DNA of 64,000 bases. It comes from a virus (taxonomy: Duplodnaviria > Caudoviricetes). The stretch covers positions 51,469 to 115,468 of the IMG/VR virus record IMGVR_UViG_2645727839_000001; one strand, 5' to 3'. The notes below the pieces were generated by a model. The model was given only the letters and a program-made list of their open reading frames with translations, was not told the DNA's origin and did no database searches. Below, piece after piece: positions 17,366 to 58,582 of the stretch. Within the stretch, counting starts at the first letter, position 1. Each line of letters begins with the position of its first letter. Position numbers and translations under genes: made by a program.

Positions 17366-17443
17366 AAGTCACTAGTGACTTAATTATTTTCTATGTGCTT
17401 ATAGTAATGATCTGCTCAAGGCATAACAAGTCACCGCTTACTT
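17366..17443. promoter_or_regulatory. pair of 16-bp operator-like sites
   Basis: AAGTCACTAGTGACTT (17366) and AAGTCACCGCTTACTT (17428). Confidence 0.7.
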
Positions 17444-17723
17444 ATCTTTCCTTTTCGCCAGAACCGTCGTCTTCTAGAAAATGATTATCCGAATTACTGG
17501 TGTGTACTTTGCCGTCTCTATCAATCCAAGCAATTACAGCGTCACCAGAGGTAATATTGCCAGTAATGTCACCAACTTGGCAGCCATGATGAAACATAAG
17601 CGTCCAAAGGTCACGATGAACCGGAACGCACTCAGTTATTACCACGTTCTCTTCTGAAAGGTCGAAGTCTTTTGAAATCTGACCCATCTCTTGGCGTAGG
17701 CGAATGAAATCTAAACAATGCAT
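17442..17723 (-). CDS. hypothetical protein
   Basis: 93 aa ORF with AGGAG RBS. Confidence 0.7.
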   Translation of the reverse strand: MHCLDFIRLRQEMGQISKDFDLSEENVVITECVPVHRDLWTLMFHHGCQVGDITGNITSGDAVIAWIDRDGKVHTSNSDNHFLEDDGSGEKER

Positions 17724-17762
17724 GGTTTACTCCTAAAAGAAAACCGCCCGTAGGCGGTCTGG

Positions 17763-19814
17763 TTATTTTTGCATGATGGCATCACGTAATTGATGCATTA
17801 CTTGGGTTGGTAAGTCTTCGATTCGGTCTATCACTACCGACTTAGGGTAGTAGCTATTAACACATGTTGTCTGAATACCAATGCCGACTACGTTTACTTG
17901 CTTCTTACTCAGGTCTTTAATCACTGACTTAAGATGCTTTTCAAAACCGTAAGTACTGCCGTAAGCACATGGCTGGCCATCTGACAGAACAATTAAGGTT
18001 TTACCCGGCTCTCGCTGTCGTAGCAGTCGGTTTGCGGCGTACTCTAGGCTTTCACCGTCTACGTTGTTAGCTAAGAAGCGTGAACGAGGGATAGATGCCA
18101 TTCGTTTCTTCTGCTCTACACCAAATCGTTCGTTAAACCCCTTGAAGATAGGAACATAGACAGGTTCTAGGCGTGACCACTTATCAGTTGCGTGACCACC
18201 TCCCATCATCTCATCGTACATGGAACGAAACTCATCGGTTCGCCATGCCCCATCATCAGTAGTGAAGCCTAGAACCTCAAAGTTGATGTTCAATTTACTT
18301 AGAACCTCAGACAGAGCCCACGCTGTCTCGGTTGCAACATGAATACGTCCACCAGACATTGAACCCGAACAGTCAATAAGAAGTGACACAGCCACCTCTT
18401 TTGTCTTCATCTCTTCTTTGGTACGAAATACTCGAGGATCATTGTTGAGTAGACGGCCTAATGCCGAACTGTTCACTCGCCCTCGCTTCTTACCACCTTC
18501 CCAACGAGATTTATTGGCAGCACGAAACGCACGTTCCAAACCTTTCTGCAATGTGCCTGTCATACCAGTTACTTTGCCCTCTATCGCATCGATCCATCTC
18601 GAATTGAACTCAGGGGGTACAACAAATTCCTCTACACGATCCCAATCTTTAGTGAATGGGAAGTAGTCAGCATCACCTTTACCCTCACCAGACATCTCAC
18701 TCACGATATCTGACATGGCATCATCGAATTCTTCAAAGAGGGTTTCATCTTCTTCCGCATCACTACCCTCTAGTGGTGGCGATGTACTTGCTGAGTCACC
18801 ATCTCCCTCGAGCATAGGAATATCATCGTCGTCCTCTGGGAACTCTTCGCTTTCTAGATCATCAATCGATTCATCGGAGCTGGTGGACTCTTCACTGTCC
18901 ATCTCTTCGTCTTCGCCATCGTCAGGTTTAGGGCTTTCAGTTTCTTCCTCGCCCGACTCATCAGAAGGTGAGTCAGTTTCTTCGGCTTCATCCTTGCCAG
19001 GTTCTTCCGGTTCTTTATCTTCTGAATCACTCGAGCTGAAATGGGACTCGTCTTCGCCCTCATCATCTAAGTCCGATGGCGGTTCATAAGTTTCGTCCTC
19101 TTTATCTTCCGAAGATTTGCGAGATTTTGTTTTTGCTTTGTGAGGGTCTTTCTCTTCACCTGCGTCTTCACCGTAAACAGCTTTCTTAATGTCTACCGCA
19201 AGCTCAAGGTTCTCAAACGAATCGGTTGTTGAAAGGATTCTCTTAGTGAACGGCTCTATTGCTTTATGAATGTTTGGGATCAACTCCCACTTGTCTTCCA
19301 TGTAGTCAGCAAAGTGACGTTGACCACCTAGTGCTCGTATTGCGCAAGCTACAAGTAAGTGCCAGTACTCACGTTCTGTTTTGGCTGGGTCTTTGCGATA
19401 GTCTTTAAACTTGGGTTCGATGAAGCGGTTTGTAAAGATGTGGTACATCTTTTCTAAGTTGTGTGATGAGCCAGAGAACTGCTTTTTCATCATACGTTCA
19501 ATAAACACGTCTTCACAAATATTGGTCAGAGCAGCTACCTTTCTTTTGACGGATTGCTCAGCAGCCTTAGAATCTGAGAAAAGCAAGTGTCCAACTTCAT
19601 GATCAACAAAGCCCTCAATAGCTGAAATTAACTCATCACTCGCGTCATCTGGTAAGAACGGGACGTTAACTCGAACCGGAGCTAGCGTGTCTGGGTGGTA
19701 CTCAACAAAAGCATTCATACCTGATTGTGTAACACGAATTCCACGTCCTGATAGGATTCTTGTTACTTTTGTTATGGTTTCGCGAACGATTGCTATTCTT
19801 CTTTTGTTGTCCAT
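17763..19814 (-). CDS. cobT: CobT-like protein (HExxH domain, acidic linker, vWA domain)
   Basis: HEVGH, LIDCSGSM MIDAS, LSDGQP; partner of CobS. Confidence 0.9.
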   Translation of the reverse strand: MDNKRRIAIVRETITKVTRILSGRGIRVTQSGMNAFVEYHPDTLAPVRVNVPFLPDDASDELISAIEGFVDHEVGHLLFSDSKAAEQSVKRKVAALTNICEDVFIERMMKKQFSGSSHNLEKMYHIFTNRFIEPKFKDYRKDPAKTEREYWHLLVACAIRALGGQRHFADYMEDKWELIPNIHKAIEPFTKRILSTTDSFENLELAVDIKKAVYGEDAGEEKDPHKAKTKSRKSSEDKEDETYEPPSDLDDEGEDESHFSSSDSEDKEPEEPGKDEAEETDSPSDESGEEETESPKPDDGEDEEMDSEESTSSDESIDDLESEEFPEDDDDIPMLEGDGDSASTSPPLEGSDAEEDETLFEEFDDAMSDIVSEMSGEGKGDADYFPFTKDWDRVEEFVVPPEFNSRWIDAIEGKVTGMTGTLQKGLERAFRAANKSRWEGGKKRGRVNSSALGRLLNNDPRVFRTKEEMKTKEVAVSLLIDCSGSMSGGRIHVATETAWALSEVLSKLNINFEVLGFTTDDGAWRTDEFRSMYDEMMGGGHATDKWSRLEPVYVPIFKGFNERFGVEQKKRMASIPRSRFLANNVDGESLEYAANRLLRQREPGKTLIVLSDGQPCAYGSTYGFEKHLKSVIKDLSKKQVNVVGIGIQTTCVNSYYPKSVVIDRIEDLPTQVMHQLRDAIMQK

Positions 19815-19928
19815 CTTTTCCTCTACCAATTCATAATACTATAAGATATAGTAAGCAGTGACTTAATATTACTAGAACTAAAAAGGGAACTAAACGTTCC
19901 CTAATTATTTGACCATGTAGGATAGATG

Positions 19929-21066: not shown

Positions 21067-22197
21067 ATGGTAGGCAATATCAAAATCGCGAATATCCTTG
21101 AGAAGTTCAATGAAGTAGGTAATGAAGTACTAATTGAATTACGTGAACATGGTGCATCGACTAAGAAATCTTCCGACCCTAGAAAATATGGCGCGCAAGA
21201 AGCTGCACATATATTAGGTCGCTCTCTTCCTTGGCTTCGTGACAACTCACGTCACATTGAAATCTCAGGTAACGGTAGAAGATATTACACGCTTCAAGAC
21301 CTGTGGGATTTGAGAGAGGCTGGTGGATTGATTTATCAGAAGCCGGAAGGAAAGAAAGCAATAAAGAAGGTTGTTGCTAACTTCAAAGGTGGTGTTGGTA
21401 AGAGTACGACCGTTATTCATGAAGCTCACTATATGGCTACATATAAAGGTATGAAAGTTCTAGTTATCGACCTAGACCCTCAAGCTTCAACCACATTCTG
21501 CATCAGCACAATGATTCCCGATTTGGATGTTGCACATGAGGATACGATCGTTGACTCGCTAACCAGTGACGTTTCGCTATGTGCTGATATCTTCCGTGGC
21601 ACATACATACCTGGAGTGGATTTCATACCGGCTAACCTATCTCTTCAAGCTCTAGATATGATGCTGTTGAATGCCGACGATGAGAACATTGATCGCTTGG
21701 GGCCTATTCATACTCGCCTTGATTCGGTTCTTAAGTTGGTAGATGAACACTACGACCTCATCCTTATTGACTGTCCACCTAATATGGGAATGGTTACAGC
21801 AAATGCTATCACTGCGGCTAACGCAATGACTCTGCCAATTCCACCAGCTCTATACGATGTAGGCTCTGCAATTCTATTCAACAAAACTATCAGCCAATTC
21901 CTAGAGCAGTCAGGTAAAGAGTTGGACTACTTCAAGGTTCTTCTAACTAAACACCCTGAGTCGGCTGCTTCTAAGCGAAACGAATCACGTATTCGCCAAA
22001 TCTTTGGTGATTACGTTTACGGTGGCTCAATTGTGGCTACTACTGAGTTTGAAAAGGCATCTGAAAACTTCACTACTGTTTACGACATCAACCGTGAAAT
22101 GACTTCTAAGAAGGTTTACGAGCGAGCACTTGAAAGCCTGAATGAAGTACATGAAGAGATGTTCGCAGACTACCAATCACTAATGGGAAATGAGTAA
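21067..22197 (+). CDS. parA: ParA/SopA type Ia partition ATPase
   Basis: N-terminal HTH, KGGVGKST, DLDPQAS, IDCPP. Confidence 0.95.
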   Translation: MVGNIKIANILEKFNEVGNEVLIELREHGASTKKSSDPRKYGAQEAAHILGRSLPWLRDNSRHIEISGNGRRYYTLQDLWDLREAGGLIYQKPEGKKAIKKVVANFKGGVGKSTTVIHEAHYMATYKGMKVLVIDLDPQASTTFCISTMIPDLDVAHEDTIVDSLTSDVSLCADIFRGTYIPGVDFIPANLSLQALDMMLLNADDENIDRLGPIHTRLDSVLKLVDEHYDLILIDCPPNMGMVTANAITAANAMTLPIPPALYDVGSAILFNKTISQFLEQSGKELDYFKVLLTKHPESAASKRNESRIRQIFGDYVYGGSIVATTEFEKASENFTTVYDINREMTSKKVYERALESLNEVHEEMFADYQSLMGNE

Positions 22198-23357
22198 TGA
22201 CTGACACAAAGAGAAATCAAGACAAGGTACATGCAGCTTCACCTATGCTTGCAGGTTTGAACAGAGATAGAGGTAACGATCGCTCTTCTGTCAGACGTGA
22301 CACAAACAAGCCTAAGTTGGACATCATGAGCAAGATTAATGAGTCCAAAAAACCAATCGAAGAGGGTAGTGCAGCCTCGGAAAGTGTCACCACGCAGGAG
22401 ACAAAATCTGAAAATGTCACCACGCAGGAGACAAATTCAAAAAATGTCACCACGCAGGAGACAAAACCCGATGTTGAGAAAGCTGCTCCTAAAAAGAAGA
22501 AAGCCAAAGAATCTACCGCATCTGAAATAGCTATCGAGTTAATCACCCCTTGGGGGTTTGCTGATAGACCGGATGATGAGTTTGGTGATGATGAAGAATG
22601 GCACTCGTTTGTTCAATCTATTCGCCAAGATGGAATTGACCAGCCTGTTACTGTTCGCCCTAAGAAGGGTGGCAAAGGTTATGAATTGATATGTGGTCGT
22701 CGTCGTTACACGGCTGCACTCGAATGCAACATGAGAGCTATGCCATGTATCGTTCGTGATCTTGATGATATGGAGGCCGCTCTACTTCAAGACCGTGAGA
22801 ACGAACAGCGTAAAGACCTATCGGTTTGGGCTAGAGCCAAGAACTGGCAGAACCTACTCGACAACAATGTATTCAAAAACTCATCACAGTTAGGTGCTCA
22901 TCTTGGTTTAGATCGACGCTACGTAAATAAAGTAATGGTGTTTACTCGCATTGAGCCTGAAATTGAGGCTGCTATTTCCAACAAGGGAAATGTAAGTATG
23001 TCGTTAGCACAAGAGTTGGTTAATCTAACTCGAGTTACTGACCTACAGCCGAAGAGTACTGTTAAGAAAAATATCGAGGCTATCGTTGCTGTAGCGGATA
23101 AGATTTCAATTGGTGGAATGACCGGAGCTAAGTTGAAGTCGCTAATCAATAAGGCTGACTCTGACGAAAGCAAAACAGATAACGAAATTGCCTACGACAA
23201 GAATATAGGTGTTGTTGACGGTACTAGATATATTACTTTGCGTAAGGATAGTAACGGAACACCAACTATCAGTATTTTAAAAGAGGCTAGGGAGCTTATT
23301 ACTGAGCAAGAGATTGCGGAGCTTATTACCTCTCTAATTGTTGACTCCAAAAAATAA
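22197..23357 (+). CDS. parB: ParB/SopB CTPase
   Basis: GIDQPVTVR, ICGRRRYTA, ENEQRKDLS, HTH. Confidence 0.95.
   Translation: MTDTKRNQDKVHAASPMLAGLNRDRGNDRSSVRRDTNKPKLDIMSKINESKKPIEEGSAASESVTTQETKSENVTTQETNSKNVTTQETKPDVEKAAPKKKKAKESTASEIAIELITPWGFADRPDDEFGDDEEWHSFVQSIRQDGIDQPVTVRPKKGGKGYELICGRRRYTAALECNMRAMPCIVRDLDDMEAALLQDRENEQRKDLSVWARAKNWQNLLDNNVFKNSSQLGAHLGLDRRYVNKVMVFTRIEPEIEAAISNKGNVSMSLAQELVNLTRVTDLQPKSTVKKNIEAIVAVADKISIGGMTGAKLKSLINKADSDESKTDNEIAYDKNIGVVDGTRYITLRKDSNGTPTISILKEARELITEQEIAELITSLIVDSKK
22381..22470 (+). repeat. three tandem 30-bp repeats inside parB with identical pseudo-palindromic 19-bp core
   Basis: TGTCACCACGCAGGAGACA at 22385, 22415, 22445. Confidence 0.9.
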
Positions 23358-41694: not shown

Positions 41695-41734
41695 ACTATT
41701 CATACAAAAATAAAAGGGGCGCAACGCCCCTAGT

Positions 41735-42019
41735 TTAAAGCCCTTGACGTTTTTGTTTAATCAAAGCCGACATTCTTGCCTCTTCAAGAGGAAACGGGGT
41801 TGCTACTGGCCTACCTGCTCTTTCCAGATGCGCAGCAATCGCCTCATCGATAAACTCATCGATAAGATTGGTTTCTGACCTGATCTTATCGAGCTTACAT
41901 TTAGATACCCAAATGTTGGCGCAGACAATATCTCTCTTACCTGCTTCTTCTTTTAAAATTTTCTGACGTTGACGTGAGCGTTTTACAATTTCACTTCTAG
42001 TAAAAGGTTGGTGATTCAT
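41735..42019 (-). CDS. small basic protein (RHH-like?)
   Basis: 94 aa; preceded by operator TAGTCACCTGTGACTT at 42032. Confidence 0.6.
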   Translation of the reverse strand: MNHQPFTRSEIVKRSRQRQKILKEEAGKRDIVCANIWVSKCKLDKIRSETNLIDEFIDEAIAAHLERAGRPVATPFPLEEARMSALIKQKRQGL

Positions 42020-42097: not shown

Positions 42098-43390
42098 TCA
42101 GACGTCTATATATTTGTGGTTATTAATATTTGTATCAATTTGTGTAAACTTATTTTGGTTTATTACATTTCCATCTAAGTACTTGATTGTTTGTTCACCT
42201 ATAAACTGTAATCCGCTCAATGTTTCATGATCAGTACCGGGATGCTTTGAAACATTTAGCCACGCTTCTTTTTTCACGGCGCACATTTTGTACTCAAACT
42301 GGTAAGTGTTTCGACTCACTTCTTCCTGCAATGCTGAATCCTCAAGCATGAAGGCAAAGTTGTCGCTACTGATACCCATCTGGCGACACTTGAGAGATAA
42401 CCGGCTTGCCATCACTTCTGTCATACCTGTTTGCACAACTCGATACTCTTTAGGAAGTACTTTGTACCCCTCTTGATTCTTAGTGCCGTACAGTTCAAGC
42501 ATTTTCTTAACCACTCGAATTGTTTCTGTAACGCTCTCTGAGCTATCGGGACAAATATATAGTGTAAGATTCTTTTCTCTAGCTAAACGCTTTATGTCGT
42601 CGCATACGAGAAGCGAGAAGCAGCTCCAAACGTTGTACGTGTCGATAATACAAATGACATCGCTATAATCGGGTAGCTCTTCAAGGTACTTGAGATAATC
42701 TTTCTCACTTTGCCAACCGATTATCACGTTGTGCTCAAGCAAGTATCGACGTGGCGCAAATCTTAATGGTCGTTCGTAATACTGCTCTAGGAAAAGGTCT
42801 GCACTGATAGAGTCAAACGATGGGAACGCCAGCTTGGTGGCAGAAGATGCCAACTCACACGACATGCTAGGGCAAGCTCGTCCGGTGATGTCATACACGA
42901 TCTTGTGCTCGTCGTGACCAGATAGACTCTTCCAATCATCCAGTATCTCGCGAATCCCCATCATCTTGGTTAGCATTGTCGATGGGTACCAAATTGAACG
43001 CAGCAACAAACTATCCAACTGGTATAGAAGCCAGATAAAGTCTGACGAGTAGCATTCCACCGTCAGCATTACCTCACCGCCTGGCACAAACAATCCTTCC
43101 TCCACAGAACGAATTGAAATAGGCAGATAACCCCCATGATCTTTGACGATTCTCTCCCACCCTTTGATGAACTCTAGATCTCGCTCACCTCGAGCAGCGA
43201 GAACTCTCTTAGCTTCATTTAAGTGGTCTTGGGTTACTGGTTGCTTTAGGAATTGTTGTACGAACGCAGAGATACCAAAGAAATAGCAGTCCTTCTTTGC
43301 TCTCAAGTAAAACTGTGCCGCCTTAATCTCTCGATCGATCAAGTCACGGTTCAATACTTTCGCAGCATCACACGCCAATATCAGATTCAT
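42098..43390 (-). CDS. divergent NAMPT/NadV-like phosphoribosyltransferase (paralogue 1)
   Basis: FFGI..F..Q.L..P.T, GW..I...HGGYLPI.I..V.EG, IWYPST, EH, DTYN, PDS; several catalytic residues altered. Confidence 0.85.
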   Translation of the reverse strand: MNLILACDAAKVLNRDLIDREIKAAQFYLRAKKDCYFFGISAFVQQFLKQPVTQDHLNEAKRVLAARGERDLEFIKGWERIVKDHGGYLPISIRSVEEGLFVPGGEVMLTVECYSSDFIWLLYQLDSLLLRSIWYPSTMLTKMMGIREILDDWKSLSGHDEHKIVYDITGRACPSMSCELASSATKLAFPSFDSISADLFLEQYYERPLRFAPRRYLLEHNVIIGWQSEKDYLKYLEELPDYSDVICIIDTYNVWSCFSLLVCDDIKRLAREKNLTLYICPDSSESVTETIRVVKKMLELYGTKNQEGYKVLPKEYRVVQTGMTEVMASRLSLKCRQMGISSDNFAFMLEDSALQEEVSRNTYQFEYKMCAVKKEAWLNVSKHPGTDHETLSGLQFIGEQTIKYLDGNVINQNKFTQIDTNINNHKYIDV

Positions 43391-44733
43391 AGACTCACCT
43401 CTTCACACTTGCACTTAAAGCGATGACTCACCACTCGATACTTTTCCAAGTTCAACATGCCATTTTCATACATCACCAATCCATCAATGCTTTGAACACC
43501 ACTTAGAGTTTTCTTGCCCGCATCATGTTTTGGATTTTTACAGACACCGGTTGTTTTCCCTGAATGCTTCACTGCGCAGATTTTCTGGATGAAACCTAAC
43601 TCTGCTCTTTGCAATCCAGTTTGGAAATAGTCATCTGACAGGACAAAGAAGAATGAATCGAGTGACCACTTCTCTTGCTCAAGACGATAGATAAGGCGTT
43701 TTAATTGGTCGATGCTTAGATCTTCTGACTGAGAAAGAATGATTGGCGCAGCAAACGACTTGTATCCTTTTTCGTTAACTGTGTGACCGAATGTTTCCTC
43801 CAACATATCTCTAACGAGGAAGAAATCTCGTTCGATGTTGGTTGAGTCAATAGCCATAGATACAGCATGAGATCGGTTGGCAATCTCGCTCTTAAACTTC
43901 TTACCTACCAACTCATTCAACACGTATTCATAGTTGTAGGTATCTAACATGAAATGACACCAACGATGTGGGTAAGCATCTAGTGTTTTACGAATCAGGG
44001 CTTCTTCATTGCCAACGTGTGCCAAAACACAAGCATGATCTTGAACGACATCAAATTCGACCATGAACTTTTCCGTTCGATACATATTGGTAAGCTGACG
44101 AGCGGCTTTAGTTGTAAGGCAGCCGGGAAAGGCCATGCCTAGTATGCTCTGTAAGATGCCAGTCGCATGAGCTGTCCCTAAATCACCGCCACTTCCTGCT
44201 TTGTAATCCGCCATGAATGGGTACAACGATGTCTTCTCGCCATACCAAGACAGTAAACGCCTAGCTCGAGCCGTCTTCAAAGCGATTGTGCTGTCATGCC
44301 ACACACAGGCAAGAAGAAGCTTATCAACCATAGAGGGAAGCATTGGGTAATTGGTATCAGTACTTTCGATTAGATAGATAGGTTCGCCAGCCTTAACGAG
44401 TGAACCCTCTGGTAGTGCTGTGATTTTTACAGGTAGATAACCACCCTGCTCTAGAATCGATTCCCAAAACTCTCGAGGGAAATACTCATTCGCCAACGCT
44501 GCAGCCGATTCTATCTGTTCTTGAGTAATAGGCTTAGCCAGAAACTCTTGAATGAAACGATGAACACCGAATACAGGGATAAGCTCATCTTCCTGACCCC
44601 AGACTCGAGCGCAACCATACGCTTGAGTCCATTCTAATGTCTCAGGTGTCACATTGAGATAAGCCAGCTTCTTACTTTCAATCGCCTCAATTATGCTCAC
44701 GCTTCTTTCCTCGCACGTACTTTTGGAACTCAA
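43387..44733 (-). CDS. divergent NAMPT/NadV-like phosphoribosyltransferase (paralogue 2)
   Basis: VFGV..FI.E.L.KPIT, GGYLPVKI.ALPEGS, DTYN, N.KGYK, K.P..D.GKK. Confidence 0.85.
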   Translation of the reverse strand: MSSKSTCEERSVSIIEAIESKKLAYLNVTPETLEWTQAYGCARVWGQEDELIPVFGVHRFIQEFLAKPITQEQIESAAALANEYFPREFWESILEQGGYLPVKITALPEGSLVKAGEPIYLIESTDTNYPMLPSMVDKLLLACVWHDSTIALKTARARRLLSWYGEKTSLYPFMADYKAGSGGDLGTAHATGILQSILGMAFPGCLTTKAARQLTNMYRTEKFMVEFDVVQDHACVLAHVGNEEALIRKTLDAYPHRWCHFMLDTYNYEYVLNELVGKKFKSEIANRSHAVSMAIDSTNIERDFFLVRDMLEETFGHTVNEKGYKSFAAPIILSQSEDLSIDQLKRLIYRLEQEKWSLDSFFFVLSDDYFQTGLQRAELGFIQKICAVKHSGKTTGVCKNPKHDAGKKTLSGVQSIDGLVMYENGMLNLEKYRVVSHRFKCKCEEVSL

Positions 44734-45628
44734 CGAATTGACCGCAACCGGTTACCAGATGATTATCGCCGGAGGTCATCGGGCCATAGAACGGCAGTAC
44801 CTCGTCATACCCCATGTTTCTCAACACATCGCAGAACTGATCCACCAGCAAGTTAGCTGCCTTCTCACCATCTGGATTTTCAGTACCGTTCTTGCTGTAG
44901 AGAAATTGAATACAAGGAATCCAAACGTCAGGGTCAAAGGTTTCTAGCATCAACTCTGCCGTTTCCTGACTCTGTTCTTTGTTGAAGATGTTGTATGAGA
45001 AGCTGAGTTTATTGGTGGGATTGATATCAAACAACTCTTTGCCGAGCTTTACTATCTCGAGCATCGTTAGCTTGTCGTTAAGCGGAATAAGGTTGTTACG
45101 TTCGATGTAATCCATCTTATGAATTGAAAAGCTAAGAAGAAGTCTCTCACCGAAATCGCGCTGCCAACCCTTCACTAAATCGTAATCGCAATGCAATGGG
45201 CCAATCGAGCTAACAAGCATCATCCAATCTGGATAGTGCTTCACGATGTATCGCATGGCTTTGTCTACTTCAACCACGTTAAGTAGCGGTTCGCCCATGT
45301 ACATCCACTTCACAAACTTAAGTGAGTATTCTGATAGGTCGCCCATGTCATCGATCATCTCTTCAAATTGAGCAATCAATTCATTGGCAGTGGCAGGTCT
45401 TAAGTGGATTCCGTTTGTGCCGCACATTCTGCAGCCGACTGGACAGCCTGAATGTGTAGAAAGATAGATAGAGGCATCATGGCCATTGTGTTTTTTCCAC
45501 CAGTGACCTTCAAACAGAGATTGTCTGTCTAAGCCTTCAAAAGTGAACTTCGATACCATTCTATCAGGCGTGTGAACGGCTCTAATTTCCGCATAGAGAC
45601 TAGAGCCGTTTATTGTTTCCCATTCCAT
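44687..45628 (-). CDS. RlmN/Cfr-like radical SAM enzyme
   Basis: GCPVGCRMC (CxxxCxxC), MYMGEPLLN, SIH, C-terminal GCGQ. Confidence 0.85.
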   Translation of the reverse strand: MEWETINGSSLYAEIRAVHTPDRMVSKFTFEGLDRQSLFEGHWWKKHNGHDASIYLSTHSGCPVGCRMCGTNGIHLRPATANELIAQFEEMIDDMGDLSEYSLKFVKWMYMGEPLLNVVEVDKAMRYIVKHYPDWMMLVSSIGPLHCDYDLVKGWQRDFGERLLLSFSIHKMDYIERNNLIPLNDKLTMLEIVKLGKELFDINPTNKLSFSYNIFNKEQSQETAELMLETFDPDVWIPCIQFLYSKNGTENPDGEKAANLLVDQFCDVLRNMGYDEVLPFYGPMTSGDNHLVTGCGQFVEFQKYVRGKKREHN

Positions 45629-45690: not shown

Positions 45691-48600
45691 TTATACGAAA
45701 GAAGCTTCCTTCCAATCAGACCAACTTCCTGCAGTATTGGCTAATGAGCGAACCCATACTTTGAAATGTAGAAACTTATCCGAATCGTCGTAAACGTTAG
45801 CTTTGTAGGTTTGAATGAACCCCTCACCTGCTGACGAACAAACTAGCTGACCCAATGCACCCTTTTCAGGATACCCATTAGCAACCGTAGCGTACTGCTT
45901 ATGCTTCTGAGTAAAGACTGCATCACCTTTGAGAGTATCTAGGCTTGCACCCTCCAACTCACCCGGATTCTTCAATGTAAGCTCAAGCTGAGTATCGATG
46001 TTTCCGGTGTGAAGCATAGTGTATTTGGTTCTGTTGTCGCTGATCATGACAGTTGGATCGGTCTTCGAGTAAAACTGTAGCGGCACTCGACTAGCACCAA
46101 CTTCTAGATCCCCATCAGTACCCGGAGTCATCTTGATAACTTCGTGCCAATCAGGTGAGCCACCGTCATCTTTTGATTTGACGCGAAGCGGTACATTGTT
46201 CTCTAGTAAAATATCACCATTAGAGCCAACGTATAACGTGCCATCTACATCGCCACCAGCAAGCGGCAGATACTCACCAAACTTGGCAATCAAATCTGTC
46301 TGATTATCAATAGTGCCAATGATAGAACCCCAAGAGCTACCACCACTTGCAATATCGATGTTGCCGTTTTCATCAGGGGATGCATTGTTGATGGTCAGAA
46401 CGAGACGTTTTTCAATGCCACCGACACTTTCCCAAATAGGCACCGTTGTACCTGCGTACAAAGCACCATCGTTCGCACCAAAGCCTTTAATGAATGCACC
46501 CATTACGCCGTGATAACCAAACATTGCGCTATCGCTAGCCACTCGAACAGAGCCAGCTAGAATTTTCTTGAAACCTACATCGATATCACCGTCTGTGTTT
46601 GTTCGAACCACATCAGAGAGATCCGCTTTCAATGCATACAGAGCCAGCTTATCAATTAGGTCTTTCTGAGCATTGATGTCTCCACTGATATATCCCCAAC
46701 GAGCAGGGTTAACGCCAATGTCTAGGTGAACCCACTCGTTACCTGCATCTTTAGACCACATGATAAGGTCACCGCGAGACACATCCATCTTAATGCCAGT
46801 ACAGATTTCAAAGTCTGGATTAGCGACTGTTACAACATAAGCGACACCGCTAGGCTTATCATCTGGCGACTCAAGGTTAGGTGCTACACCACACTCAAGA
46901 GTGGTATTTAACGCATCACCAGTAATCGCATTGGTCATTGCGTCTAGATAGCCACGTACACGAATGAATTCAGGTGTTTCATGATGGAAGTATTCCCAAC
47001 CATTTCCTGTCGGGTTAACACGAATGGATTTACCCACATTTCCTTCTTTGCCCGAAATGACAGGTTCAGCTTGAATACTCTCAGGTGTTAATCCGTGTGG
47101 GTTAACTTCTTTCTCATGGTTATGAAGCTCAGTTGTAAGAGCTGCCAATGCCAATTTACTTGCAGCACCAATGATATCTGTCGTTACACCGTGAGGGTTA
47201 GTCGCAAGTAAGTGGTTATCAAAGACTGTATTTGATAACGCATCGATCATGTCAGGCGTAATCTTATGCGGATTAATTACCTGCAAGTGGCTACTAAAGG
47301 TAGAAATAGGCAATGCGCCAATTTGACCAGGCTGTAAATCAATGCGACCACCACCAGTAGGAGGATTAACACCATTGATTGAAGTAACCGCAGATTGACT
47401 TACCCATTGGCCATCGCTAATACCATAGAAGCCGCCTAGCATTGGGGCTTTGCTCTGGTACTTGGCAAGTTCGGTCTGTAAGTCTAACTGGTTAGCGATG
47501 TCACCTGCGATAAAGCCCCACTCAGCCTTGCCGCCGCCAGATGAAGGATTGAAGTATTCCCAACCTGTGCCTTGCGCGTTTACTCGAATTGATTTGCCGA
47601 TGTTAAGCGGTTTGTTTTCAATTACAGGCTCTCGCTGACTAAGAGCAGAGGCTAAATCTAGCTGCTTCTCGATGTCACCTTTAATTTCGCCCCATTCCAG
47701 AACAGGAACAGCCGGAATAAAATACTCCCAACCATCACCAGTACTATTCACTCGGATAGTCTTACCAACGTTCCCTTTCTTGTCAGCAATCTCAGGTTCG
47801 GCTCCAACATTCAAAGCAGTCAGTAGAACTTTACCGCCTCCGATTGGCGCCTCGATGTCGTTGATTTGGGTGACAGGGTTGCGCTCAGTCCATACGCCAT
47901 TAAGAACACCAACAAAAGATGGTCCAATAGGCGCAGCTACTTGTTTTAGGTTAAGTGCGTCTTGAAGGTCTGCTTGGTTGGCAATATCACCAATGATCGT
48001 TCCCCAAGCCGGTTCTTGCGAAGCTGGCGTGTAGAACTCCCAATTGTTGCCCGTGGCATCAACTCGAATTGCTTTGCCTACGTTAGTGGCCTTGTCTGCA
48101 ATAACAGGTTCTTTTCCATCTAGCTTAGCCATAAGGTCTAGCTGATCTTCAATTACACCTGCAATAGCACCCCATTTAGCACCATCTTGATCACCTACAA
48201 CAAAATATTCCCAACCGTCACCTCGATTGTTAACACGAATTCCTTTACCTACGTTATTAGGTTTGTCTTGAATAAAGGGTTCCATGCCTTGGCGAGACTG
48301 CATGATGATTGATTCAACCGCAGAGCGAGTAAGCGCGTAGGCAAAGTCTGTTGTGTCGGAGTGTCCGGCTGTTAACGCTTTACCATCTCGAGCTAATGCA
48401 CCGACATTGACGTAATCAATCTGAACATTGCCCTGTAGATCTGGTAATTCACCGTTAACGCTGTGTACGCTGCTGCCTACACCACCTTTAACAACCTGCC
48501 ACTTGCGATCTTGTCTTGCATACTGACGACCATCTTGTGGAGCTTCTTCGACACCCCAAGTAACTTCCATACCATGACGATTGAACGCCACAAGCAATTC

Positions 48601-48867
48601 GTTAATTGAGATTTCGCGAGGTGTGTATTCGTCTATTACGATAGTGCCACGATCTAGTTGATCACGACCCTTAGTGATAGTGACACGGTAACGCCCATAG
48701 TGAGCGATTAGAGTGTAATTGCCATCCTTGTCGCTTTTACAGCTAACATTTGTGGAGTCAATTACATCGTAAGAAGTGAGGGATGCGGTCAAGGATACAT
48801 TGCCGAATGGAACAGGCTTGCCATCTGGCCCCTTGAGCACCCCTTTGATTGTAATGTAGCTACTCAT
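45691..48867 (-). CDS. tail fibre / side-fibre protein with internal repeats
   Basis: Stf-like N-terminus (I.GVLK.PDGKP), EAP.DG..YAR.D..W, repeated WGxIxG..Q.DL and NVGKxIRV..WEY. Confidence 0.8.
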   Translation of the reverse strand: MSSYITIKGVLKGPDGKPVPFGNVSLTASLTSYDVIDSTNVSCKSDKDGNYTLIAHYGRYRVTITKGRDQLDRGTIVIDEYTPREISINELLVAFNRHGMEVTWGVEEAPQDGRQYARQDRKWQVVKGGVGSSVHSVNGELPDLQGNVQIDYVNVGALARDGKALTAGHSDTTDFAYALTRSAVESIIMQSRQGMEPFIQDKPNNVGKGIRVNNRGDGWEYFVVGDQDGAKWGAIAGVIEDQLDLMAKLDGKEPVIADKATNVGKAIRVDATGNNWEFYTPASQEPAWGTIIGDIANQADLQDALNLKQVAAPIGPSFVGVLNGVWTERNPVTQINDIEAPIGGGKVLLTALNVGAEPEIADKKGNVGKTIRVNSTGDGWEYFIPAVPVLEWGEIKGDIEKQLDLASALSQREPVIENKPLNIGKSIRVNAQGTGWEYFNPSSGGGKAEWGFIAGDIANQLDLQTELAKYQSKAPMLGGFYGISDGQWVSQSAVTSINGVNPPTGGGRIDLQPGQIGALPISTFSSHLQVINPHKITPDMIDALSNTVFDNHLLATNPHGVTTDIIGAASKLALAALTTELHNHEKEVNPHGLTPESIQAEPVISGKEGNVGKSIRVNPTGNGWEYFHHETPEFIRVRGYLDAMTNAITGDALNTTLECGVAPNLESPDDKPSGVAYVVTVANPDFEICTGIKMDVSRGDLIMWSKDAGNEWVHLDIGVNPARWGYISGDINAQKDLIDKLALYALKADLSDVVRTNTDGDIDVGFKKILAGSVRVASDSAMFGYHGVMGAFIKGFGANDGALYAGTTVPIWESVGGIEKRLVLTINNASPDENGNIDIASGGSSWGSIIGTIDNQTDLIAKFGEYLPLAGGDVDGTLYVGSNGDILLENNVPLRVKSKDDGGSPDWHEVIKMTPGTDGDLEVGASRVPLQFYSKTDPTVMISDNRTKYTMLHTGNIDTQLELTLKNPGELEGASLDTLKGDAVFTQKHKQYATVANGYPEKGALGQLVCSSAGEGFIQTYKANVYDDSDKFLHFKVWVRSLANTAGSWSDWKEASFV

Positions 48868-48918: not shown

Positions 48919-50253
48919 TTAAACCTCTTCCTTTTGGTACAAAGCTAACTTCAACCATTGACCGCTGTGGTTGCCAAAAATCACCTCATCTTCTTTGTAG
49001 TCATGAGGGTATTTCTCGGTCATTCGGTCGATAACCCTTGAGATGATGTAATCAAAATCGGCATACAAATGAACCATGCCGTTTTCATACGCAAGATTCA
49101 TCTTAGATGCATCAATATAATTATCATCCCACTCAACAGTCTTGTAGCTGATATCTTCCCTAAGCTTTACAGAAGCATCAGAAACGATCTTCTCTGTTAC
49201 TTCGAACGAATACCCATCTACACACCAGTTGTCTTCTCTGAGAGCTTTACAGATAGTTTCAATCTCACTGGCAGAGTCAATGATAGACGGCACACCAAAT
49301 TGCTTGTCTAGATACTTGTAACCCATCGAGTTCATTTCTGAACCAACAAGGTCTTCTAACGTATTCAGCCAAAACTTAGCTCGCTTAATCTTGTCACCGC
49401 CAACTGGGATGAAGTTAATCGAGTTAAGGCGGTCATTTAGAATATCCGGGTACCTTGCTCTAAGGGCTTCTTCAAACTCCTGCTCATCTTCTTCCAAAAT
49501 ATAGAAGTTGATATGAGTAGTTGGTGCAGCCGTTAGAACGTTACCCAGATGCTCTTCAATGCTGATACCACTTAAGCAATGAGAGTAAGCTGATACCGTG
49601 TTCCAGTTCTTCATACCAGATGTATAGTGATCGCTAATCACTTTGAAAGCAGACGGTGTTGTGTCGTAAGGGCTGATCGCTTTGAACGCTAGAGACAGGT
49701 ATTCCAACTCTTGCAGCGTCATGCCTGAGCTTGGCTCCATCATAAAGAGTTTAGCTAGGTCGGTATTAGGTCGGTCAGAACTAAGAACAACCTCTTTACG
49801 AACGGCTTCTCGAGCTTTCAATAGAGCGGCAGACAGTTGCAACACTTTCTCTAGGTGCATCTTAAGCATCCAAGCGATTTGATGGGTAACCCAAACATGC
49901 TCATCGCTGGTGGACTCAATAACTAGAACCACATTTTTGTTTTCTAGGATATGTCCCTCTTGCTCACAGTAGATGCGAACAGGTGGTAAACCATCGAGAT
50001 CGTTTAAAATGCCCTGCCAATCAGCCTTGATAAGATTCAAGCCACCTTTGAAACGTTGCATTGCATCTTCTAGATCATCAAACGTAATGCCTTGCAGATA
50101 CTCGTTAAGAAATGGAATGACACCCATCAGAACCGCATCATCTTCCGACTCTAGTGAGAAACGTACCTGCATACCTTTAACATGCTTGTTCAAAACAAGA
50201 GGTGCTGAAAGACGACGGCTCGAGCTTGAAAAGATTAGATTACTATTCGGCAT
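48919..50253 (-). CDS. highly divergent NAMPT-like protein (paralogue 3)
   Basis: GV..FL.EYL..IT..D..DA, W..IL...DGLPPVRI...EG, N.MGYKYL. Confidence 0.7.
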   Translation of the reverse strand: MPNSNLIFSSSSRRLSAPLVLNKHVKGMQVRFSLESEDDAVLMGVIPFLNEYLQGITFDDLEDAMQRFKGGLNLIKADWQGILNDLDGLPPVRIYCEQEGHILENKNVVLVIESTSDEHVWVTHQIAWMLKMHLEKVLQLSAALLKAREAVRKEVVLSSDRPNTDLAKLFMMEPSSGMTLQELEYLSLAFKAISPYDTTPSAFKVISDHYTSGMKNWNTVSAYSHCLSGISIEEHLGNVLTAAPTTHINFYILEEDEQEFEEALRARYPDILNDRLNSINFIPVGGDKIKRAKFWLNTLEDLVGSEMNSMGYKYLDKQFGVPSIIDSASEIETICKALREDNWCVDGYSFEVTEKIVSDASVKLREDISYKTVEWDDNYIDASKMNLAYENGMVHLYADFDYIISRVIDRMTEKYPHDYKEDEVIFGNHSGQWLKLALYQKEEV

Positions 50254-51073
50254 CGTAAGCCTCCAATTTAGCCTTAATCACACCTGAGTTTCGGATGTAA
50301 TGTTTCTCGACGTGCTTCTTAAGACGGTGAACGTCATTCGCGATACCGGTTTCTTCTTCCAAGTACGGAATGAACTCGTTCATAAAGTCCAATTTGTTGC
50401 CATCTAAGGTCACACTATCGAACGCATCGCAGTATTCCTGCAACATGGCCACTAAACGAATACTTGGAGTTTCAAACGGTGACGGAATTTGAGTAGTCAT
50501 ACCTAGAGCGTGATACGCGCCTTTCTTTCTCATGCAAGAGAAACAGCTACCACAACCAAATTCACCATGTAGTTTGCTACGGCAAGTATGGCTACGTGTA
50601 AGCTCACCCAAATTCATAGCCAAAGACTTAGCTCGTTTGATCACGTCAATTTTCCCATAGCCCTTTTCTGCTAGAGGGAAGCTTAAGATATCGCGCTCAA
50701 ATCGCTCGTTGAACTCATACGCCCAACCTAGCGTGTTGTCTTCAAACAAAGCAGAGTCTGTCATCAATACACCCATGACAATCTTATCTGCTTGGTAGTG
50801 ACGCATTACGTCATACAAGATCCCTTCATACATGAACGGGAACAAATCAACGCCCTCAACATCACGCTTAGGTAGGATATTTCCATAGCCTTTAAAGTCT
50901 CGACGCTGAATTCGTTCTGGTAAGGCTGCATACTCAGCTTCGCTAAATGGCAAACCCAAGTCATACCAAACTGGAATGATCTCTTCGTTCTGGTACTCAA
51001 GCTCTGTCAGCTTAAGTGCTAGTAAGCTATCCATGCCGCTTACCAGTACTACAATTTTCTTTTTAGACATCAA
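50243..51073 (-). CDS. QueC-like PP-loop ATPase, degenerate (paralogue B)
   Basis: IVVLVSGMDS (one Gly missing), TC..CGSCFSCMRK Zn site. Confidence 0.8.
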   Translation of the reverse strand: MMSKKKIVVLVSGMDSLLALKLTELEYQNEEIIPVWYDLGLPFSEAEYAALPERIQRRDFKGYGNILPKRDVEGVDLFPFMYEGILYDVMRHYQADKIVMGVLMTDSALFEDNTLGWAYEFNERFERDILSFPLAEKGYGKIDVIKRAKSLAMNLGELTRSHTCRSKLHGEFGCGSCFSCMRKKGAYHALGMTTQIPSPFETPSIRLVAMLQEYCDAFDSVTLDGNKLDFMNEFIPYLEEETGIANDVHRLKKHVEKHYIRNSGVIKAKLEAYDAE

Positions 51074-51869
51074 CTAATCCCTCTAGTGACAAATCGTTTG
51101 CACGTTCCTTTAGCAACTCAAGTACCCGCTCTGGCTCATCACAACCAAAGTAAGACTCAACGCCGCGGCAAACCACATCGTTCTGAGCCCTTTCCGTTCC
51201 CTCGAATCGAATAGCGGAGTAATCCATAGATAGTTGCTCAACTATCTCATAACAATTCATTGGGTTTGTCTCATCAAAGTCTTTTAGACCAATGGCAGAG
51301 AAGACAGCCCAACGCTTAATACAAACATGGCACTTGCCGCATTTCTTGTGTTCGTGGTGCATACAGCTTGAAGAGTCTTTCAACTCTTCAACTGTCATAC
51401 CATTATCGATAGCCCACTTTGCAGCTTTCAACTTATCAAAGCCGATAGCCTCAAGTGGTGCTTCTACCTCGACTCGCTTGCCAGTTGGCGACACGATGCT
51501 TAATAAATGGTTAAGGCGGTAATAGAACTCATAGCTTTGATCTAAGTACGAGTTCATTTCGCCATATAGAAGACCCAAGAAGATGCGATCTGGGTTCTCC
51601 TGAATCATTGCTTGAGCAATCATGGCAAAGTCTCGACCCGGTAGGTGGGCTTCATCCGATTCTGACACCAAGTAAGGCTCGTTCGGGTTAAGCCATTCGA
51701 ATTTTCGAATGACTGTTCCCTTTGGCAATGATTGACGCTCTTTAAACTCAAACGGATGCCCGTAGTCATAGTGAAGCAGAACAACCTCTGCCTCTGGGTA
51801 GTTAACTTTAGTGAAGTGCGTAAGGATGGTGCTATCCATCCCACCACTAACGAGAACGACAATCTTCAT
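51063..51869 (-). CDS. QueC-like PP-loop ATPase (paralogue A)
   Basis: VLVSGGMDST, DYG, LPGRD, SC..CGKCHVCIKR; GGAG RBS before MKIVV. Confidence 0.85.
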   Translation of the reverse strand: MKIVVLVSGGMDSTILTHFTKVNYPEAEVVLLHYDYGHPFEFKERQSLPKGTVIRKFEWLNPNEPYLVSESDEAHLPGRDFAMIAQAMIQENPDRIFLGLLYGEMNSYLDQSYEFYYRLNHLLSIVSPTGKRVEVEAPLEAIGFDKLKAAKWAIDNGMTVEELKDSSSCMHHEHKKCGKCHVCIKRWAVFSAIGLKDFDETNPMNCYEIVEQLSMDYSAIRFEGTERAQNDVVCRGVESYFGCDEPERVLELLKERANDLSLEGLVDV

Positions 51870-52962
51870 ATTTGCTCCATTCAATCTGAGAGATGAAAAG
51901 GTTTGGTGATAATGCTGATTCAGGGCATTTGCCATTTGGTCTGCTAGATTCGTCATAGATAACCATTGAGTTCTCACCCAAAGTCACAGCTTCACCTTCT
52001 TCGCCAGAATCTCCCCCGACTTTAAGACTGCCACCTGCGCCACCACCTGCACCACCGACTTTACAAACAGGACTTGTTCCAGAACATGAGGCTTTACCGC
52101 CTGTTTTACCAACCAAACCAAAACCACCACCTGCACCACCTGCACCACCGTAAGGTGTTTTTCCCGTAGGTGAGCCGTTACTGCCATTAGGGATACCTTT
52201 GCCGCCAAAGCCTCCCTGACCAGCATCGTAATCGTATGCACAACCACCTTTAGAACAGCCAGTTGTATGACGGTGAGCGCCACCGCCGCCGCCGCCACCG
52301 CCACCACCACTTACAATAGAGTTAGATCCTTTGACAAATCTGACTGTGGCGTTTGTGCCGCCATGAACACCGCCACCGCCTTTACCTCCGCCGCCTCCAT
52401 TCTTAGGGTTCTTAGGGGTGTTGCCATCAAAACCTCCGCCTCCGCCTCCATTACCACCACGACCGATGATTCGGGCACCAGATGACAATTTGATTTTGAC
52501 ACTGGTTTTACCACCGCTAGGCATATTACCCACGGCAAAGGCATAGCTACTCGTTGATGCAGAGCCAATCCGAGCATTAGTGGCCACAGTCACCACAACG
52601 TTTCGAACGTGGTGCTTCTTGATTGACTTCAAGTGAGCTTCTAGGTTGAAGTTGTTACGGGTAGTAATGCTCACAAAGATTGTATTAGAAACCCCATAGA
52701 ATCGAGAGAATGGATAAGGGTTGCCCGGACAAGGCTTACCCGTGTTATCCGCTTCAATCTTACAAAGAATGCCTTTCACATCGCTGATCTTGTTTGGTCG
52801 AGCATCTTCAAACTCTTTACCAATCTGAGCTAGTGTGATTTTTCCCGAGCCCGGTAGCTTGTAATCATCTGGCTTCTGTTTAGGGGCGTTAATATCCACC
52901 CCATCGACAATCTCTTTATTTGTTCCATCTTGGTTAGGAATTAAAATTGGTGCTTTGCTCAT
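51847..52962 (-). CDS. glycine-rich receptor-binding adhesin (gp38-like)
   Basis: IIGRGGNGG, IVSGGGGGGGG polyglycine motifs; directly after S74-bearing fibre. Confidence 0.75.
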   Translation of the reverse strand: MSKAPILIPNQDGTNKEIVDGVDINAPKQKPDDYKLPGSGKITLAQIGKEFEDARPNKISDVKGILCKIEADNTGKPCPGNPYPFSRFYGVSNTIFVSITTRNNFNLEAHLKSIKKHHVRNVVVTVATNARIGSASTSSYAFAVGNMPSGGKTSVKIKLSSGARIIGRGGNGGGGGGFDGNTPKNPKNGGGGGKGGGGVHGGTNATVRFVKGSNSIVSGGGGGGGGGGAHRHTTGCSKGGCAYDYDAGQGGFGGKGIPNGSNGSPTGKTPYGGAGGAGGGFGLVGKTGGKASCSGTSPVCKVGGAGGGAGGSLKVGGDSGEEGEAVTLGENSMVIYDESSRPNGKCPESALSPNLFISQIEWSKYEDCRSR

Positions 52963-57181: not shown

Positions 57182-58582
57182 TCAATACCCTTGTGCTTTC
57201 CAGTTAACTGTTCCTCCCACAACCGTATTGTTCTCCGGGTTGCGCAGCTCAACATCAAACCCAGTCAAAGTAATAGATTCGACTTTGACCATTGGCACAA
57301 ATGCTGTAGTACCTGCGTTAACCACGACTGAAACTTGCGGTATGGTGTAAAACTGTTTCTTAAAGTTAATGGTGGTTCGACTAGCCGGGATACTCTCAAT
57401 CCCTTTGTCGAAGATATCTGGCAAATCTACTTCTACCCTCAACTGTTCTATGTAAGGTCGAGAACTGTTTTGGGTTGTCATGATCACTTTTAACAATGCT
57501 TCTTGATATTCATAGTCACCAGCCAAGAACGGTTTAAATTCACCGAAGTCTTTAGGGGCTGATTTTATGAATAGCTCATCGAAGTCAGCGTCAGTTAGGG
57601 CGTGCTCGAGCACTCGAAGATCTGAAACCGTCACCCCACCACCTAAAAAAAGCTCATCTAAGATTCTAAGCTTGTCGATAAATGGCTTTGTTGTGGTTTT
57701 AGAAATCGCTTCTTCAACATCTAGGTTCTCATCAAAGTAACGATTGAAAAGAATGGTTGATGCCATACGATCTAAGATACGAAGCTTGTTTTCTTGGAGT
57801 TTGTAGTAGCCCTTAGCGATGGCTTCGGTGATTCCGAATCCACTCTCAATAGCTTTTTCAATTGTTTTGTCAGTCCAATAAATCACACCAAAATCTTCAT
57901 CAAAGGTGCGTCTAAAGTCAGCGACAGTCTTGAAATACCATTCAGGTTTTCCCGTATTCAATTGCAGCGTTCGCCATGACACCTGTAGGAAGTTAAAAAC
58001 AGGATGAGCATCTACTAAGGAGAACTGCTCTTTCTTTTTGAGGAACGTACCAATTGCGGAGCTACTATCTATTGCTACCGACGAATCGAAGTACCGTAAG
58101 AACTCAAGAACTTCCGTATGTTTAGAGGCTATTGAGAACTTCTCAGCCTCAGACTTGGTAAAAGAATGACGACCACGATTAGGAGAGATAGCAAAGTACC
58201 CTTCAAATTCTTTGGCCAAGTTGTTAGCAACACTGTCGTCAACACCAATTCTTTTACTAAGTTCTTTCAAAAGGTGAAAGCTTACGTCGCCTCTATCCTT
58301 GAGACGAAAATAAGCCATCAGCTCTTTTGAGAGGTCTTTTGAAATCTTGACATCCTCTGCCTTTAAAACTTCCCGACAGAACTTGTCTACCGCTCTGCGA
58401 ACGTCAGAATCATCCAAGCCAAACTTTGCGCCTGTAATCGTTGCTGTGAAGTAGATAAGACCAAATTCTGCCCACGGCTTAAGGCGGCAATCATAGGTAT
58501 TCCATTGCCAGCCTTTCCTTCTCATATCTCGCCATGTGTACATTTGACGGATATCTTTATCGACATCGACAGAATAGGTCAT
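57182..58582 (-). CDS. tail/fibre-attachment structural protein
   Basis: position in tail module; C-terminal F...F...P.V...TGF.V..W.AQGY. Confidence 0.7.
   Translation of the reverse strand: MTYSVDVDKDIRQMYTWRDMRRKGWQWNTYDCRLKPWAEFGLIYFTATITGAKFGLDDSDVRRAVDKFCREVLKAEDVKISKDLSKELMAYFRLKDRGDVSFHLLKELSKRIGVDDSVANNLAKEFEGYFAISPNRGRHSFTKSEAEKFSIASKHTEVLEFLRYFDSSVAIDSSSAIGTFLKKKEQFSLVDAHPVFNFLQVSWRTLQLNTGKPEWYFKTVADFRRTFDEDFGVIYWTDKTIEKAIESGFGITEAIAKGYYKLQENKLRILDRMASTILFNRYFDENLDVEEAISKTTTKPFIDKLRILDELFLGGGVTVSDLRVLEHALTDADFDELFIKSAPKDFGEFKPFLAGDYEYQEALLKVIMTTQNSSRPYIEQLRVEVDLPDIFDKGIESIPASRTTINFKKQFYTIPQVSVVVNAGTTAFVPMVKVESITLTGFDVELRNPENNTVVGGTVNWKAQGY

Follow-up and report, generated by a model that had tools for sequence, protein, structure and literature searches.

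Three NAMPT-like genes in a Vibrio virus

The window analysed here is a stretch of 64,000 nucleotides spanning bases 51469–115468 of the complete 115,468-bp virus record IMGVR_UViG_2645727839_000001. Its minus strand carries three genes for diverged relatives of nicotinamide phosphoribosyltransferase (NAMPT), termed P1, P2 and P3. Judged from their active-site residues, P1 and P2 no longer catalyse the reaction of nicotinamide with phosphoribosyl pyrophosphate (PRPP), as in NAMPT, or with ADP-ribose pyrophosphate (ADPR-PP), as in the homologue Namat. The three genes are as follows.

42098..43390, minus strand: P1, NAMPT-fold paralogue of 430 residues (family, alignment and fold matches)
43387..44733, minus strand: P2, NAMPT-fold paralogue of 448 residues from TTG at 44733, with a likely start at GTG 44700 (437 residues)
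48919..50253, minus strand: P3, NAMPT-fold paralogue of 444 residues, probably a pseudoenzyme (family and fold matches)

The two open reading frames (ORFs) that a sequence-only reading of this DNA had assigned to P1 and P2 were both confirmed, and P2 is recorded with 437 residues in the protein collection, in agreement with the GTG start. By profile and fold comparison, all three proteins are NAMPT homologues. PHROG 448 (NAMPT) matched P1 at 1e-55, P2 at 7e-51 and P3 at 1.7e-12, and the NCBIfam model PRK09198 matched them at 2e-60, 4e-51 and 8e-17, all far under its 405-bit cut-off. HMMER alignments to solved NAMPTs in the PDB reached 2e-38 for P1 and 7e-24 for P2. The NAMPT N-terminal domain PF18127 (cut-off 25 bits) was passed by P1 with 46.7 bits, P2 remaining below it with 22.6; the cut-off of the NAPRTase catalytic domain PF04095 (20.8 bits) was reached by none of the three (P2 16.8 bits, P1 and P3 without a match), and a genome-wide search with this model returned 0 matches. 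The ESM Atlas model of P1 superposes on a NAMPT cluster with a TM-score of 0.91, and an AlphaFold model of P3 (pLDDT 90.6) gave a TM-score of 0.78 to Xanthomonas NAMPT (7yqo, E=9e-24), a value that leans towards the NAMPT fold as the model was built from a 30-row alignment including canonical NAMPTs.

Across phages, the NAMPT family was found at 1018 places in 1017 records, so multiple copies per phage are rare. A tblastn search of plasmids with P1 matched 187 records, all below 60% identity and at best 27–29% among the matches listed, which, where annotated, are nicotinate phosphoribosyltransferases.

The canonical substrate pocket is replaced in P1, P2 and P3

For the residue comparison, 73 proteins of 380–580 residues were aligned with MAFFT, 12 shorter or longer ones having been dropped from the 85 retrieved. 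Nine paralogue-clade proteins (three P1, two P2 and four P3) were compared with 61 canonical NAMPT/Namat homologues, the odd or fragmentary rows P0035, P0080 and P0083 having been removed from the reference set. Human residue numbering, used throughout, was checked against printed mouse-chain coordinates with an assumed offset of +3; D16 and Y18 we take to be those of the DSYK motif, and R40 was likewise placed by motif and recall. The MAFFT alignment and the HMMER alignments to solved NAMPTs agree on the residue pattern. In the canonical set, R196, H247, D279, R311, D313, D354, G381, G383, R392, K400, K415 and K423 are invariant (61/61) and G353 occurs in 60 of the 61 proteins; the sites lost in the paralogues are therefore invariant or nearly so among canonical homologues, placing the pattern beyond chance.

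The P1 clade keeps D16, K19, D192, R196 (in YDITGR), D219 (FDS), E246 and H247 (LEH), D279, D313 (CPDS), R392, K400 and K415. Replaced in its three members are Y18 (by A), F193 (I), R311 (C), D354 (T/M/T), G381 (M/G/T), G383 (E) and K423 (H/Q/L), and the G353 position is gapped. The P2 clade keeps an acidic residue at position 16 (E/D), together with K19, R40, H247 (as D-H), D279, D313, R392, K400, K415 and K423; it has E at the D354 position and S at the G383 position, and has lost Y18 (K), D192, F193 (G), R196 (L/M), D219 (L), R311 (A) and the Gly loop, with the whole HDFGxRG loop gone. In the P3 clade, no catalytic residue is kept consistently: the columns read H/K/E/R at H247, L/N/K/E at D279, V/N/E/gap at D313, R/E/R/A at Y18 and T/T/S/N at G383, and F193, R311 and D354 are varied. 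Instead of FGxGGG, the Gly-rich phosphate loop reads FMLEDS in P1 and FVLSDD in P2 and is acidic in every orthologue of both clades (E-D-S in 3/3 for P1, S-D-D in 2/2 for P2).

These replacements fall on recognised functional sites. Nicotinamide is described as being stacked between Y18' and F193 and hydrogen-bonded by D219 (PMC3665594, PMC12774641); Y18 and F193 are gone in all three paralogues, and D219 survives in P1 only. The ribose-phosphate site (R311, G353/D354, G383/G384) is likewise incomplete in P1, P2 and P3. H247, D279 and D313, described as promoting His phosphorylation (PMC12143786), are present in P1 (E-H, D, D) and P2 (D-H, D, D) and absent from the P3 clade. As far as the alignment can tell, the canonical nicotinamide and ribose-5-phosphate pocket is thus gone in all three paralogues, and P3 is probably a non-catalytic pseudoenzyme.

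Much of this had been proposed from a by-eye comparison, and the full alignment bore it out: the residues said to be kept and lost in P1 and P2 were so, the stacking Tyr of DSYK has disappeared (CDAAK in P1, IESKK in P2), the Gly-rich loop is lost from both, and the canonical residues called lost were not retained. The further proposal that the phospho-acceptor His survives in all three paralogues fails for P3, given the mixed H247 column in its four clade members. Missed at that stage were the loss of R311 from P1 as well (Cys in 3/3 orthologues) and the retention by P1 of most partner-side residues, its own R392, K400 and K415 among them.

P2 retains the partner-donated half of the pocket

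The sequence-only reading proposed a heterodimer. Active-site residues can be sorted by the subunit that supplies them. In the Namat structure, as described, equivalents of F193, R196, D219, R311, D313, G353/D354 and G383/G384 come from one protomer and equivalents of D16, Y18, R40 and R392 from the other (PMC12774641); a docking table for human NAMPT places R311, D313, D354, G355 and G383/G384 in chain A and R40, R392, D393, K400 and K423 in chain B (PMC11431865). Of the four basic residues that the sequence-only reading took to come from the partner subunit, R392, K400 and K423 are placed there by the docking table, R392 also by the Namat structure; K415 is taken up below.

A Fisher test of 13 cis against 8 trans sites showed that P2 keeps 7/8 trans and only 3/13 cis sites (p=0.0075), which gives P2 the profile of a subunit that can supply the partner side of a pocket and nothing else. 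In P1, which shows no such asymmetry, the counts are 6/8 for trans and 7/13 for cis sites (p=0.40). The proposed complementary loss of active-site residues is thus one-sided, the losses of the two proteins complementing each other at K423 only, a residue kept in P2 alone. The P2 stop codon and the P1 start share 4 nt (ATGA), preceded by a GAGG ribosome-binding site. The asymmetry of P2, this coupling and the conserved adjacency of the two genes fit a P1–P2 dimer whose pocket would combine the cis side of P1 with the trans side of P2. R311 being lost in both, no dimer restores the canonical site. In the literature, we found no description of heteromeric or pseudoenzyme NAMPT paralogues in phages.

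P1 and P2 are maintained in diverged elements

Searches of about 15 billion proteins showed the paralogue family to be very rare yet recurring. The orthologues found share 60% and 39% identity with P1, 57% with P2, and 41%, 33% and 23% with P3. A 115,571-bp Vibrio owensii contig encodes the whole trio (MET2951221, P3; MET2951224, P2; MET2951225, P1; P1 and P2 at 57–60% identity) in the same order as here, with two genes between P3 and P2 and consecutive accessions for P2 and P1. A 176-kb ENA contig holds P1-like (39% identity) and P3-like proteins, and a contig of a V. splendidus metagenome-assembled genome holds a P3-like protein. At the DNA level, searches of viral, metagenome and genome contig collections, with queries including P1 and the P1-clade alignment, yielded no DNA of relatives.

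To assess constraint, the 79 columns with 85% identity or more among the canonical proteins were taken as family-critical. Of the 72 such columns that are ungapped in the P1 clade, 44 show no variation within it, against 85/321 elsewhere (odds ratio 4.4, p=6e-8); the P2 clade is invariant at 58/76 against 190/359 (odds ratio 2.9, p=2e-4). For the P3 clade the figures are 11/63 and 24/339 (p=0.013), and all 11 columns are structural Gly, Pro, Tyr or Glu-type positions. In a quick IQ-TREE tree of 70 rows, a fully supported branch sets all 61 canonical proteins apart, and each of P1, P2 and P3 forms a clade of its own at the end of a long stem. The three probably share a single origin, a reading tempered by the meeting of long branches in this tree. 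Terminal branches are about twice as long in P3 (1.24/0.9) as in P1 (0.47/0.47) and P2 (0.58/0.45). The earlier argument that full-length ORFs speak against simple decay is upheld by intact ORFs and enriched conservation at family-critical columns. The replacements are fixed across orthologues; P1 and P2 are, on these comparisons, real, rare and constrained variants of a known fold.

The NAMPT-like genes lie in two coupled triplets among tail-fibre genes

The genes and features surrounding the trio are listed below.

41715..41731, minus strand: strong hairpin resembling an intrinsic terminator, 7-bp stem (6 G-C pairs) followed by a T-run
41735..42019, minus strand: basic 94-residue ORF, no family match, final gene ahead of the terminator
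44687..45628, minus strand: RlmN/Cfr-like radical SAM protein, 313 residues, CPVGCRMC cluster motif (TIGR00048, 1.9e-13)
45691..48867, minus strand: tail fibre, 1058 residues, between P3 and the radical SAM–P2–P1 triplet (tail and tail-fibre PHROGs, best 8e-16)
50243..51073, minus strand: QueC-like B, 276 residues, degenerate PP-loop SG-MDS, four-Cys motif kept
51063..51977, minus strand: QueC-like A, 304-residue ORF, likely start M37 at 51869, PP-loop SGGMDS intact, four-Cys motif kept

Transcription of the minus strand runs from a central tail fibre J (1449 residues) through a 149-residue protein, a 466-residue H-type lectin protein, tail fibres of 306 and 1133 residues and a glycine-rich 371-residue protein to QueC-like A, QueC-like B and P3, and then from the 1058-residue fibre through the radical SAM gene, P2, P1 and the 94-residue ORF to the hairpin, which would end the unit there; an M15 endolysin gene follows. 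Gene overlaps define two translationally coupled triplets, QueC-like A/QueC-like B/P3 and radical SAM/P2/P1, which flank the 1058-residue fibre gene at the late operon end. Both overlaps in the first triplet (QueC-like A/B and QueC-like B/P3) measure 11 nt, and the radical SAM stop overlaps the GTG start of P2 by 14 nt.

The QueC-like proteins, one with an intact and one with a degenerate PP-loop, both with the four-Cys motif, make up a second enzyme/degenerate-twin pair in the cluster. PADLOC matched only its generic QueC model, for QueC-like A. The main text of a survey of the QueC family makes no mention of nicotinamide, phosphoribosyltransferase or radical SAM, and its supplementary neighbourhood tables could bear on the point (PMC13329287). 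Family matches place the radical SAM protein with RlmN/Cfr (TIGR00048, below cut-off; Cfr 9p0p, 3e-5), and it is RlmN-type rather than QueE. In it, Leu takes the place of the Cys that Cfr and RlmN carry seven residues ahead of the cluster motif. Its C-terminus is a GCGQF motif, which we take to resemble the C-terminal Cys motif of RlmN. As judged by their family assignments, the QueC-like and radical SAM neighbours all belong to families acting on heteroaromatic bases.

In Vibrio phage 166E36-1, a homologue of the radical SAM protein with 26% identity (L004 8019-8945) immediately follows a Prs-like gene and a Namat-type NAMPT (GSYSYQYVTRDT), which makes this phage, by its gene order, a second case of radical SAM and NAMPT-family adjacency. 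A NAMPT-family neighbour was found for the homologue in one of four records (present in 166E36-1; absent from ANB28, Arash and Ahp1).

Several further features of the locus were noted. The 1058-residue fibre contains several copies of a GNVGKxIRVNxxGxGWEYF-type motif, spotted by eye in the translation. The 371-residue protein (51847-52962, minus strand), between the 1133-residue fibre and QueC-like A, has long glycine runs and no family match, and runs at its end into the longer version of the QueC-like A ORF. The 466-residue protein of the fibre cluster (57182-58582, minus strand) carries a C-terminal H-type lectin domain (PF09458, 3e-7). At 16161-19829 on the minus strand, a 403-residue protein matches PHROG 249 (porphyrin biosynthesis, 1e-75), with a weaker match to an ATPase family, beside a 688-residue protein with weaker matches to families annotated as CobT or cobalamin biosynthesis; both adjoin the DNA polymerase gene.

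The record as a whole has genes for partition (ParA/ParB-like) and for a DnaB-like helicase, a primase, a ligase and a large DNA polymerase, and on this gene content the Vibrio virus carrying the trio looks like a phage-plasmid. The ParA-like (1.6e-51) and ParB-like (2.4e-27) genes lie at 21067-23357 on the plus strand and, together with orthologues of the trio on a V. owensii contig of near-equal size, suggest a plasmid-like prophage lifestyle. Megablast found no near-identical phage DNA, and the J-like tail protein shares only about 31% identity with those of 112-kb Pseudomonas siphoviruses.

A proposed role for P1 and P2

Our best explanation, plausible and held tentatively, is that P1 and P2 are maintained, co-translated NAMPT-fold proteins that may form a heterodimer acting on a different substrate, with P3 as a non-catalytic paralogue, all within a probable nucleobase-tailoring module. 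P1 and P2 keep the phospho-histidine apparatus (E/D246-H247, D279, D313) and basic polyphosphate-binding residues that are partner-donated in NAMPT (R40, R392, K400, K415), the base sandwich and ribose-5-phosphate loops having been swapped for residues fixed within each clade. From the kept residues, the rewritten sandwich, the acidic loop and the change of R311 to Cys, we infer an enzyme that handles ATP or pyrophosphate, whose base is another than in NAMPT and whose ribosyl or phosphoryl donor probably differs too. A P1–P2 heterodimer would be the most likely arrangement, in which one composite pocket, built from the cis half of P1 and the trans half of P2 and with I193 and K18' as its base sandwich, would do the chemistry, the opposite pocket being degenerate; the substrate would then be a different heteroaromatic base, a different ribosyl or phosphoryl donor, or both. 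With neighbours from heteroaromatic-base families, a nucleobase-tailoring module is the most economical reading of the surroundings, and the six genes of the two triplets would probably serve such nucleobase or nucleotide tailoring rather than NAD salvage.

Several observations weigh against this explanation. The trans residues of P1 itself are invariant in 3/3 orthologues, which would be surprising for residues pointing into a dead P2 pocket, and the residue pattern allows a P1 homodimer short of only K423 on the trans side. On the ENA contig with P1-like and P3-like genes no P2 orthologue was seen, in a shared-word search that may miss such a relative. No combination of subunits would contain R311 or the Gly loop, which makes any PRPP-type chemistry doubtful, and for K415 as a partner-side residue we found no backing in the NAMPT and Namat literature consulted. 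Columns at which the canonical residue is replaced, where neofunctionalisation might have left a mark, are not significantly more invariant than background (P1 12/35, p=0.32; P2 25/38, p=0.17). Finally, a late-operon position is unusual for a metabolic or anti-defence gene, and the location among fibre genes leaves a link to the virion or a role in binding as a live alternative.

In a rival explanation, the P1 homodimer alone is an enzyme with a new specificity, P2 and P3 being separate non-catalytic regulators, scaffolds or ligand binders. The cis and trans sites kept by P1 (7/13 and 6/8, invariant in 3/3 orthologues) and the ENA contig with no detected P2-like protein speak for it; however, the trans basic residues and K423 of P2 would be purposeless without a live cis half, the P1 and P2 genes are closely coupled and neighbour each other in two elements, and P2 evolves as slowly as P1, so that we regard this as possible but doubtful. 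We consider it rather unlikely that all three are pseudoenzymes reused as binders or structural proteins, such as sponges or decoys for molecules derived from ADP-ribose or nucleotides, or partners of tail fibres. All three do lack R311, the aromatic sandwich and the phosphate loops, P3 has no conserved catalytic residue and is yet kept in four elements, and the genes stand amid fibre genes at the late operon end; against this, the H247-D279-D313 triad and E/D246 retained by P1 and P2 would be needless for a pure binder, the cofactor motifs retained by the radical SAM protein and QueC-like A point to chemistry, and PADLOC offers no model match except that to QueC.

Ordinary phage NAD+ reconstitution, by a NadV-type NAMPT (NARP2) or by Namat (NARP1), is what the database names and PHROG 448 would imply, and the radical SAM homologue beside an Adps/Namat pair in Vibrio phage 166E36-1 is in line with it. 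It is nonetheless very improbable, since Y18, F193 and R311 are lost in all three proteins and D219 is kept in P1 only, the Namat clamp is absent, the genome lacks Prs/Adps and none of the three reaches the PF04095 cut-off. Decay of functionless duplicates is scarcely credible: the many lost canonical residues and the roughly twofold faster evolution of P3 relative to P1 and P2 are set against full-length ORFs in three to four diverged elements, conservation enriched at family-critical columns, coupled starts and conserved gene order.

A wider version of the nucleobase-tailoring explanation, which we consider speculative and unlikely, would make the six genes one new pathway, in which two enzyme/pseudoenzyme pairs and a C-methylating radical SAM protein build or attach a modified heteroaromatic nucleotide; P1–P2 would then be the first NAMPT-family member that is both heteromeric and re-specified. 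Its product might be a carboxylated or amidated, methylated pyridine or purine riboside. If the nucleobase–protein conjugation described for the QueC family (PMC13279940) is a guide, the target of the pathway might be a protein, for instance the neighbouring tail fibre.

Phage NAMPT homologues are now read as NAD+-reconstitution enzymes (NARP1, NARP2), and the trio shows the fold taken elsewhere, with the catalytic His apparatus and polyphosphate-binding residues constrained while the nicotinamide and ribose-phosphate pockets were rewritten. If the mixed P1–P2 dimer is true, it would be a clean natural enzyme/pseudoenzyme pair on an interface-spanning active site, and its substrate and the QueC-like and RlmN-like genes nearby could between them bring a new phage nucleobase chemistry to light. 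At minimum, these genes counsel caution against annotating their kind as NAMPT or as anti-defence NAD salvage.

Comparison with known systems

The closest relative by fold is NAMPT/NadV, the type II phosphoribosyltransferase of phage NARP2. P1 and P2 share with it the full-length fold, an N-terminal domain (PF18127, above cut-off in P1) and H247, D279, D313, R392, K400 and K415; they differ in that Y18, F193, R311, G353/D354 and the G381/G383 loop are replaced, R196 and D219 also being lost from P2, in that PF04095 is not reached, and in that three diverged copies occur in one genome.

Namat, the NARP1 enzyme, is likewise a phage-borne NAMPT homologue, reported to have a changed donor specificity and a dimer pocket spanning both protomers (PMC12774641). 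According to the same report, it keeps the whole NAMPT catalytic core, adds an aromatic (adenine) clamp, GSxxxxxxTRD, and needs the Prs-like Adps (PMC12774641); intact core, clamp and Adps partner are all absent here. At the clamp position P1 has FMLEDSALQEEVSRNT and P2 has FVLSDDYFQTGLQRAE. Many distant database matches of P2 carry the Namat signature, so the method can detect it. Mutation of Namat R306 (equivalent to R311) and D215 (equivalent to D219) is reported to lower activity 11-fold and 8-fold, respectively, and R306G to abolish it in earlier work cited there (PMC12774641). NARP1 was accordingly rejected: R311 is lost in all three proteins, the clamp is absent and a search of the complete record with PF13793 (Prs/Adps) gave 0 matches.

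The neighbours resemble known families in their motifs, the QueC-like proteins being PP-loop ATP-pyrophosphatases with a four-Cys motif and the radical SAM protein an RlmN-type CX3CX2C protein, and differ from them in lying far under the family cut-offs and in one degenerate PP-loop. Searches of the genome for TGT, FolE and QueD (PF01702, PF01227 and PF01242) gave 0 matches each. Phage 7-deazaguanine DNA modification (DpdA/FolE/QueD/QueE/QueC) was rejected on this ground and because the radical SAM protein is RlmN-type, not QueE, and the hint in the sequence-only reading at preQ0 or 7-carboxy-7-deazaguanine (CDG) thus has no pathway backing. Known defence systems were set aside on the PADLOC result.

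Enzyme–pseudoenzyme complexes offer a further parallel, for example trypanosomatid deoxyhypusine synthase and its dead paralogue (PMC3663545). The fold and the organism are unrelated, and the parallel is no more than an analogy; as that system is described, its likeness to P1 and P2 lies in the pairing of an impaired catalytic protein with a dead paralogue around active sites that span the interface.

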